Sequence record: MT912506.1
Source: a phage
DNA: 1,278 nt
Reading direction: 5' to 3' (one strand)
Below are positions 1-1,278 of the stretch, in pieces. The notes below the pieces were generated by a model that was given only the letters and a program-made list of their open reading frames with translations, did no database searches and was not told the DNA's origin. The position numbers and the translations under genes are program-made. Position 1 is the first letter of the stretch, and every line of letters begins with the position of its first letter.

Positions 1-1278
1 ATGAGCAACGTGCAGACCAGCGCCGAGAGGATCCCCCACGACCTGAGCCACCTGGTGTTCGAGGCCGGCAAGATCGGCAGGCTGAAGACCATCAGCTGGA
101 CCCCCGTGGTGGCCGGCGACAGCTACGAGACCGAGATGGTGGGCGCCATCAGGCTGAGCCCCCTGAGGAGGGGCCTGGCCGTGGACAGCAGGGTGGACGT
201 GTTCACCTTCTACATCCCCCACAGGCACGTGTACGGCCAGCAGTGGATCGACTTCATGAAGACCGGCGTGAACGCCACCCCCCTGGCCCCCGTGACCTGC
301 GCCAGCGGCTGGGACAGCGCCGCCTACCTGGGCACCATCCCCAGCACCAACCTGAAGGTGCCCAAGTTCCTGCACCAGAGCTACCTGAACATCTACAACA
401 ACTACTTCAAGCCCCCCTGGAGCAACGACCTGACCTACGCCAACCCCAGCAACATGCCCGCCGAGGACTACAAGTGGGGCGTGAGGGTGGCCAACCTGAA
501 GAGCATCTGGACCGCCCCCCTGCCCCCCGACAGCCTGACCAAGCAGGACATGACCACCGGCGCCACCACCATCGACATCATGGGCCTGCAGGCCGCCTAC
601 GCCAAGCTGCACACCGAGCAGGAGAGGGACTACTTCATGACCAGGTACAGGGACATCATGAAGGACTTCGGCGGCCACACCAGCTACGACGGCGACAACA
701 GGCCCCTGCTGCTGATGAGGAGCGAGTTCTGGGCCAGCGGCTACGACGTGGACGGCACCGACCAGACCAGCCTGGGCCAGTTCAGCGGCAGGGTGCAGCA
801 GACCTTCAACCACAAGGTGCCCAGGTTCTACGTGCCCGAGCACGGCGTGATCATGACCCTGAGCGTGACCAGGTTCCCCCCCACCCACGAGATGGAGATG
901 CACTACCTGGTGGGCAAGGAGAGCCTGACCTACACCGACATCGCCTGCGACCCCGCCCTGATGGCCAACCTGCCCCCCAGGGAGATCGAGGTGAAGGACC
1001 TGTTCCACAGCGCCGGCACCGGCAAGTTCAAGATCGCCGAGGGCCAGTGGTACAGGACCCAGCCCGACAGGGTGGCCTTCCCCTACAACGCCCTGGACGG
1101 CTTCCCCTTCTACAGCAAGCTGCCCAGCAACGACATCCTGGAGAGGGTGCTGGTGCACACCGACAACTACGACGAGATCTTCCAGAGCATGCAGCTGGTG
1201 CACTGGAACATGCAGACCAAGTTCAACACCACCGTGTACAGGCACATGCCCACCACCAGGGACGGCATCATGACCAGC
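1..1278 (+). CDS. F: Major capsid protein F, phiX174-like microvirus (Bullavirinae); full-length protein, stop codon not present in the window; back-translated or codon-optimised coding sequence
   Basis: Seen in sequence: frame +1 is open from ATG at nt 1 to nt 1278 (426 codons, no in-frame stop). Translation begins MSNVQTSAERIPHDLSHLVFEAGKIGRLKTISWTPVVAGDSYE and ends TVYRHMPTTRDGIMTS. Established knowledge (recalled, not computed): many long stretches match phiX174/G4 protein F, e.g. PHDLSHL, LRLSPLRRGLA, HRHVYG, GVNATPL, YLNIYNNYFK, IWTAPLPP, IDIMGLQAAYA (nt 571-603), DNRPLL, WASGYDVDGTDQTSLGQFSGRVQQT (nt 730-804), VPEHG, LTYTDIA, NLPPREI, KFKIAEGQWYR (nt 1024-1056) and the C-terminal IMTS; the length (426 aa) matches the ~427 aa phiX174 F. 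Codon usage is synthetic (one codon per amino acid), so no native start-site context can be assessed. Confidence 0.9.
   Translation, partial: MSNVQTSAERIPHDLSHLVFEAGKIGRLKTISWTPVVAGDSYETEMVGAIRLSPLRRGLAVDSRVDVFTFYIPHRHVYGQQWIDFMKTGVNATPLAPVTCASGWDSAAYLGTIPSTNLKVPKFLHQSYLNIYNNYFKPPWSNDLTYANPSNMPAEDYKWGVRVANLKSIWTAPLPPDSLTKQDMTTGATTIDIMGLQAAYAKLHTEQERDYFMTRYRDIMKDFGGHTSYDGDNRPLLLMRSEFWASGYDVDGTDQTSLGQFSGRVQQTFNHKVPRFYVPEHGVIMTLSVTRFPPTHEMEMHYLVGKESLTYTDIACDPALMANLPPREIEVKDLFHSAGTGKFKIAEGQWYRTQPDRVAFPYNALDGFPFYSKLPSNDILERVLVHTDNYDEIFQSMQLVHWNMQTKFNTTVYRHMPTTRDGIMTS

Follow-up and report, generated by a model that had tools for sequence, protein, structure and literature searches.

A microvirus capsid gene written with one codon per amino acid: a probable back-translation of the EMCL318 F protein with human codons

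The question raised by this stretch of DNA (1278 nt, analysed over its whole length and called the window in what follows) is whether it is a natural phage gene or a sequence that was written from a protein. Read in frame +1, the window consists of 426 codons: it begins with an ATG at position 1, and translation through to the final base meets no stop codon. When these 426 codons are tabulated, 20 distinct codons are found for 20 amino acids, which is an effective number of codons of 20.0. The third positions are C in 268 codons and G in 158, that is, 426 of 426 (GC3 of 100%), and the overall GC of the window is 64%. The complete census is given below, one codon per line.

Codons in frame +1 of the window (amino acid and codon, number of occurrences, status)
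Ala GCC, 26, the sole Ala codon
Arg AGG, 22, the sole Arg codon
Asn AAC, 18, the sole Asn codon
Asp GAC, 28, the sole Asp codon
Cys TGC, 2, the sole Cys codon
Gln CAG, 16, the sole Gln codon
Glu GAG, 17, the sole Glu codon
Gly GGC, 26, the sole Gly codon
His CAC, 15, the sole His codon
Ile ATC, 19, the sole Ile codon
Leu CTG, 32, the sole Leu codon
Lys AAG, 18, the sole Lys codon
Phe TTC, 20, the sole Phe codon
Pro CCC, 28, the sole Pro codon
Ser AGC, 27, the sole Ser codon
Thr ACC, 37, the sole Thr codon
Tyr TAC, 22, the sole Tyr codon
Val GTG, 27, the sole Val codon
Met ATG, 17, non-degenerate
Trp TGG, 9, non-degenerate

A preliminary description of this DNA had listed one codon for each of the 18 degenerate amino acids and had stated that all third positions are C or G. 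Every entry of that list is right, the third positions are as stated, and no amino acid in frame +1 is encoded by two or more synonymous codons, which is the occurrence that the description itself had named as contrary to its reading. If codons are drawn at the frequencies seen in the F gene of EMCL318 (the natural gene for the same protein, as shown below), the log10 probability of using one codon per amino acid is -86.8. Resampling synonymous codons 10,000 times from this native usage always gives at least 42 distinct codons and a GC3 of at most 0.49. To our knowledge, no natural gene of 426 codons has an effective codon number of exactly 20.

Which protein, then, does the window encode? The whole of it is taken up by one feature.

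Positions 1..1278, + strand: recoded coding sequence of the major capsid protein F (gpF) of Escherichia phage EMCL318, with 100% protein identity to AUG88362.1

This recoded F sequence has 426 sense codons and an ATG start, and is without a stop codon or flanking sequence. Its translation matches the Pfam family PF02305 (Phage_F, capsid protein F) with 525.2 bits (E = 2.3e-157; the curated cut-off is 25), and when phage records are searched with tblastn, gene F of EMCL318 (MG563770.1, positions 2559-3836) matches at 100% over the full length, followed by the F genes of WA14 and ID18 (99.1%) and of other G4-like phages (about 88-90%). By exact-sequence look-up the protein is AUG88362.1, "gpF [Escherichia phage EMCL318]", on one 5489-nt contig. 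EMCL318 (MG563770.1), described in PMC6316680, is classified in the Microviridae, Bullavirinae, Gequatrovirus, and its native F gene spans positions 2559-3839 of MG563770.1, where it ends with a TAA stop and is sited between J and G. This is the J - F - G context, on a circular ssDNA genome of roughly 5.5 kb, that goes with a Bullavirinae F gene.

Among the solved structures, the G4 capsid (PDB 1GFF) is the best relative of the window protein (906 bits), residues 2-426 being colinear over the full length with residues 1-426 of 1GFF. The F proteins of phiX174 and alpha3 (2BPA, 1AL0, 1CD3, 1M06) give about 640-650 bits and are also colinear over the full length and members of the same Pfam family, Phage_F. 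The G4 F protein (CAA24019.1) is 87% identical to the window protein with one single-residue gap, and the window protein falls within the WA14/ID18/EMCL318 subcluster of the G4 clade, 4 residues apart from the F proteins of WA14 and ID18. Because the matches are strongest with EMCL318, WA14, ID18 and G4 (1GFF) and weaker with the F proteins of phiX174 and alpha3, the source protein is best classed by sequence as G4-like (Gequatrovirus), and its tie to phiX174 is at the subfamily level only. The match to Microviridae F proteins that had been predicted is thereby borne out, while the accompanying "phiX174-like" framing holds as far as a Microviridae F protein is meant and fails as a narrow label, the source being G4-like. 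A T=1 shell of 60 F subunits is described for phiX174 and G4, and by homology the window protein, as a 426-residue Phage_F capsid subunit, would form such a T=1 shell of 60 F subunits.

The alignment with G4 F (CAA24019.1) contains a set of differences that deserves mention in its own right. At residues 35-37, 69 and 282, G4 reads TPGGAG, FPF and HRV, and the window protein reads TPVVAG, FTF and HGV; the window residues at these places are those of native EMCL318 gpF. Rather than true variation, these differences may reflect errors made in the early sequencing of G4 (the 1978 record).

With the source protein at hand, the window can be compared base by base with the natural F gene of EMCL318. 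The latter draws on 49 distinct codons where the window draws on 20, has a GC of 45.7% (64% in the window) and a GC3 of 41.8% (100% in the window), and ends with TAA where the window has no stop. The two are 71.3% identical in nucleotides, with 367 base differences; 136 of the 426 codons are the same and 290 are changed. All 367 differences are synonymous, and the proteins are identical in 426 of 426 residues. The third codon position accounts for 285 of the differences, and the 82 that fall in first or second positions are all swaps within the six-fold codon families: Ser TCN to AGC in 27 codons, Arg CGY to AGG in 22, and Leu TTR to CTG in 6. The native F genes of EMCL318, WA14 and ID18 are 96% identical among themselves, while the window is at most 71.6% identical to any natural F gene. 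In similarity as well as in codon usage, the window is thus unlike its natural relatives and falls outside native Gequatrovirus DNA.

The same comparison of natural genes provides a separate observation on EMCL318 and WA14. Their F genes (positions 2559-3836 in EMCL318) are 96.0% identical, which is about 51 differences in 1278 nt, with four amino-acid changes (A101S, K373E, H386R, V400A). PMC6316680 counts 79 differing bases in the entire 5.5-kb genome, and 3 changes in F. If both counts hold, about two thirds of the EMCL318 genome differences fall in F, and nearly all of these are synonymous; such a concentration would be a hint of recombination in F, or else of a discrepancy in counting.

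Does the same DNA exist elsewhere? Megablast with the window finds no match in 50,697 phage records, 72,556 plasmids and 20,395 E. coli replicons. A sensitive blastn search recovers natural F genes only, and all 400 matches are at 60-80% identity, the best at 71.6%. Scans of the viral, genome and metagenome contig collections for exact 30- to 39-mers of the window come back empty, and no searchable paper contains its first 21 bases. The preliminary description had predicted that there would be no close nucleotide match, and had named a near-identical match to a natural genome as evidence to the contrary; the prediction agrees with the searches, and no such match is present in the collections searched.

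We turn to the question of which codon table was followed. For every degenerate amino acid (18 in all), the comparison uses the codon that has the highest RSCU in Table 2 of PMC5125587. In the Homo sapiens column of this table, the top codon is the window codon for 18 of 18 amino acids, whereas the control columns give 12/18 (Aedes aegypti), 13/18 (A. albopictus) and 11/18 (Zika virus). The preferred codons of the native F gene agree with those of the window in 4 of 18 cases. For Arg the human values in PMC5125587 are nearly tied (RSCU of 1.26 for AGG and 1.20 for AGA, CGC and CGG). A random choice of one codon per residue hits all 18 human top codons once in 3.4e8, and the claim that the codons are the most frequent human ones can be upheld for 18 of 18, with the Arg AGG narrow and dependent on the table. 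In the Kazusa human table, Arg AGA is marginally ahead; the use of AGG therefore points to one particular human table, since not every human table yields this codon set. Going by its documentation example, EMBOSS backtranseq run on the default human table would render Arg as AGG. In the literature, we find no printed backtranseq output of an EAAAK linker and no mention of the Ehuman.cut table.

The coding scheme itself is a standard one. According to PMC1810562, BACKTRANSEQ renders every residue by the codon that the species uses most. "One amino acid-one codon" is likewise an established method under that name, offered for protein back-translation too (PMC1933141). As with the tools that follow it (OPTIMIZER, JCat, GeneDesign, EMBOSS backtranseq), the window has a single top codon for each amino acid and an effective codon number of 20, and the drawbacks named for the method in PMC1933141, repetitive elements and an unbalanced codon pool, are seen in the window as 12 direct-repeat families and six C-runs. 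The window differs from the usual use of these tools in that a human reference set is applied to a protein of an E. coli phage, and in that no stop or flanks are added. The window is rich in codons that are rare in E. coli (22 AGG for Arg, 28 CCC for Pro), AGG being among the rarest codons of that host. That such codons saturate the gene is a further sign that the choice of table ignored biology; the recoded gene would express poorly in E. coli, the natural host of the phage.

The window also retains traces of how its codons were joined, of which the following are located by sequence and restriction scans.

Positions 876..882, + strand: the longest C-run (six runs of 6-7 bases in all), where Pro CCC stands beside codons that end or start with C
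Starts at 278, 412, 515, 523 and 973, + strand: the other five C-runs of 6-7 bases
Positions 29..34, no strand assigned: BamHI site GGATCC, formed by AGG-ATC-CCC (Arg-Ile-Pro)

The C-runs arise because Pro is always CCC and adjoins codons ending or starting in C; the native F gene has no C-run of 6-7 bases. All 76 of the 76 CpG dinucleotides are at codon junctions, where a third-position C meets the G of the next codon, and none is within a codon (observed/expected ratio of 0.59). Four common cloning sites (BamHI, PstI, BglII, BsaI) remain within the window, which indicates that no clean-up for manufacturability took place. The junction CpGs, the C-runs and the retained sites together argue that the codons were picked singly, with their context ignored. 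The window contains no Kozak sequence, Shine-Dalgarno sequence, tag or cloning flanks. All this is as expected of a plain residue-by-residue look-up, and less so of a synthetic gene that a vendor had cleaned up.

How else could such a sequence have come about? If the window were a natural gene with an extreme bias in codon use, belonging to a G4 relative rich in GC, its intact reading frame would be the one point in favour. In nature the same protein is encoded at 45.7% GC with 49 codons, none of the 400 blastn matches exceeds the 60-80% range of identity, and the window has 22 AGG codons, which are very rare in the natural host E. coli; we give this reading a vanishingly small probability. 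Natural extreme codon bias is ruled out by the probability of 10^-86.8 (P of about 1e-87 under native usage) together with the resampling (at least 42 codons, GC3 at most 0.49). That some other rule produced the sequence, be it maximal-GC codons, E. coli-optimal codons or a generative sequence model, is in our judgement highly improbable. A maximal-GC scheme would also give a GC3 of 100%, but it is ruled out as the back-translation rule by Arg, for which AGG has less G+C than CGC and CGG. The E. coli-optimal scheme is at odds with AAG, GAG, CCC, GCC and AGG in the window, which are not the preferred codons of E. coli, and from a generative model one would not expect 426 of 426 natural residues with zero codon variation.

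A gene that was physically built, whether for making the microvirus capsid protein or virus-like particles in mammalian cells or for use as a fusion partner, would carry a codon signature equal to that of an in-silico back-translation, and the absent stop would suit a C-terminal tag or fusion. Designs of the "skewed" or cOpt kind have really been made and tested (bioRxiv 10.64898/2026.03.18.712111; PMC8754653). The window, however, is without Kozak sequence, tag, cloning flanks and stop, it keeps internal BamHI, PstI, BglII and BsaI sites and six runs of C6-7, and it has no match in the plasmid collection (72,556) or in the searchable papers, so that a built gene of this kind appears unlikely. 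We know of no reported reason for expressing the EMCL318 F protein in human cells. In a related form of this proposal, a human-codon-flattened capsid gene would have been built either for mammalian production of capsids or virus-like particles or for testing the effect of host-rare codons (22 AGG, 28 CCC) on microvirus fitness; this, too, we hold to be distinctly unlikely.

The explanation that we prefer is the back-translation of a known protein. It is practically certain that the window is an artificial recoding and not natural DNA, and we consider it very probable that EMCL318 gpF was written back to DNA with the top human codons by a fixed look-up. In this process, the amino-acid sequence of gpF would be converted into DNA deterministically, with the one most frequent human codon for each residue, and no editing would follow the look-up: no stop or flanks would be added, restriction sites and homopolymers would be kept, and the codon junctions would be left untouched. 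An unedited look-up output of this kind makes a purely in-silico product the most likely origin, and the window probably exists only in silico. Which tool was used, and that no physical copy of the gene was ever made, are matters of inference. The interpretation offered in the preliminary description, a back-translation or codon-flattened synthetic sequence, is accordingly supported by the single codons, the human codon set, the synonymous-only differences and the absence of the DNA from natural collections.

The recoding has consequences for anything that is read from the DNA. No promoter-like site, no terminator-like site and no Rfam match is found in the window, and the features that are found are as follows.

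Positions 1..1278, - strand: stop-free frame -1, an artefact of the recoding (the native gene has 9 stops here)
Positions 3..1277, + strand: stop-free frame +3, an artefact of the recoding (the native gene has 49 stops here)
Positions 348-369, 807-828 and 855-876: examples of direct repeats within 194-1277

Each codon of frame +3 opens with a third-position C or G of frame +1, which makes TAA, TAG and TGA impossible, and frame -1 is open because no stop codon has its reverse complement among the 20 codons in use. Twelve families of direct repeats of at least 14 nt (D1-D12) are located in 194-1277 of the window, with lengths of 14-22 nt and identities of 73-88%, and the native gene has none; they arise because coding with single codons turns similar short peptides into near-identical DNA. 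The predicted RNA folding energy is -473.9 kcal/mol for the window and -321.6 kcal/mol for the native gene, the stronger predicted folding being due to the higher GC. The expectation that any DNA signal here would be an artefact is in keeping with these results, the searches for promoters, terminators and Rfam families being empty and the open frames, repeats, C-runs and folding following from the recoding. Microviruses are famous for their overlapping genes, and the stop-free frames +3 and -1, the repeats and the folding energy are open to misreading as overlapping genes or structured elements.

The biological content of the window is its protein only. The coding scheme is standard, the protein has an existing database entry (AUG88362.1) and comes from a capsid family that is among the best studied, and nothing in the window is biologically new. 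No call on promoters, ribosome-binding sites, terminators, repeats, RNA structure, overlapping reading frames or composition should be drawn from its DNA. The value of the finding is in quality control only: the window is to be flagged as synthetic or back-translated, and is not to be counted as a new phage lineage.
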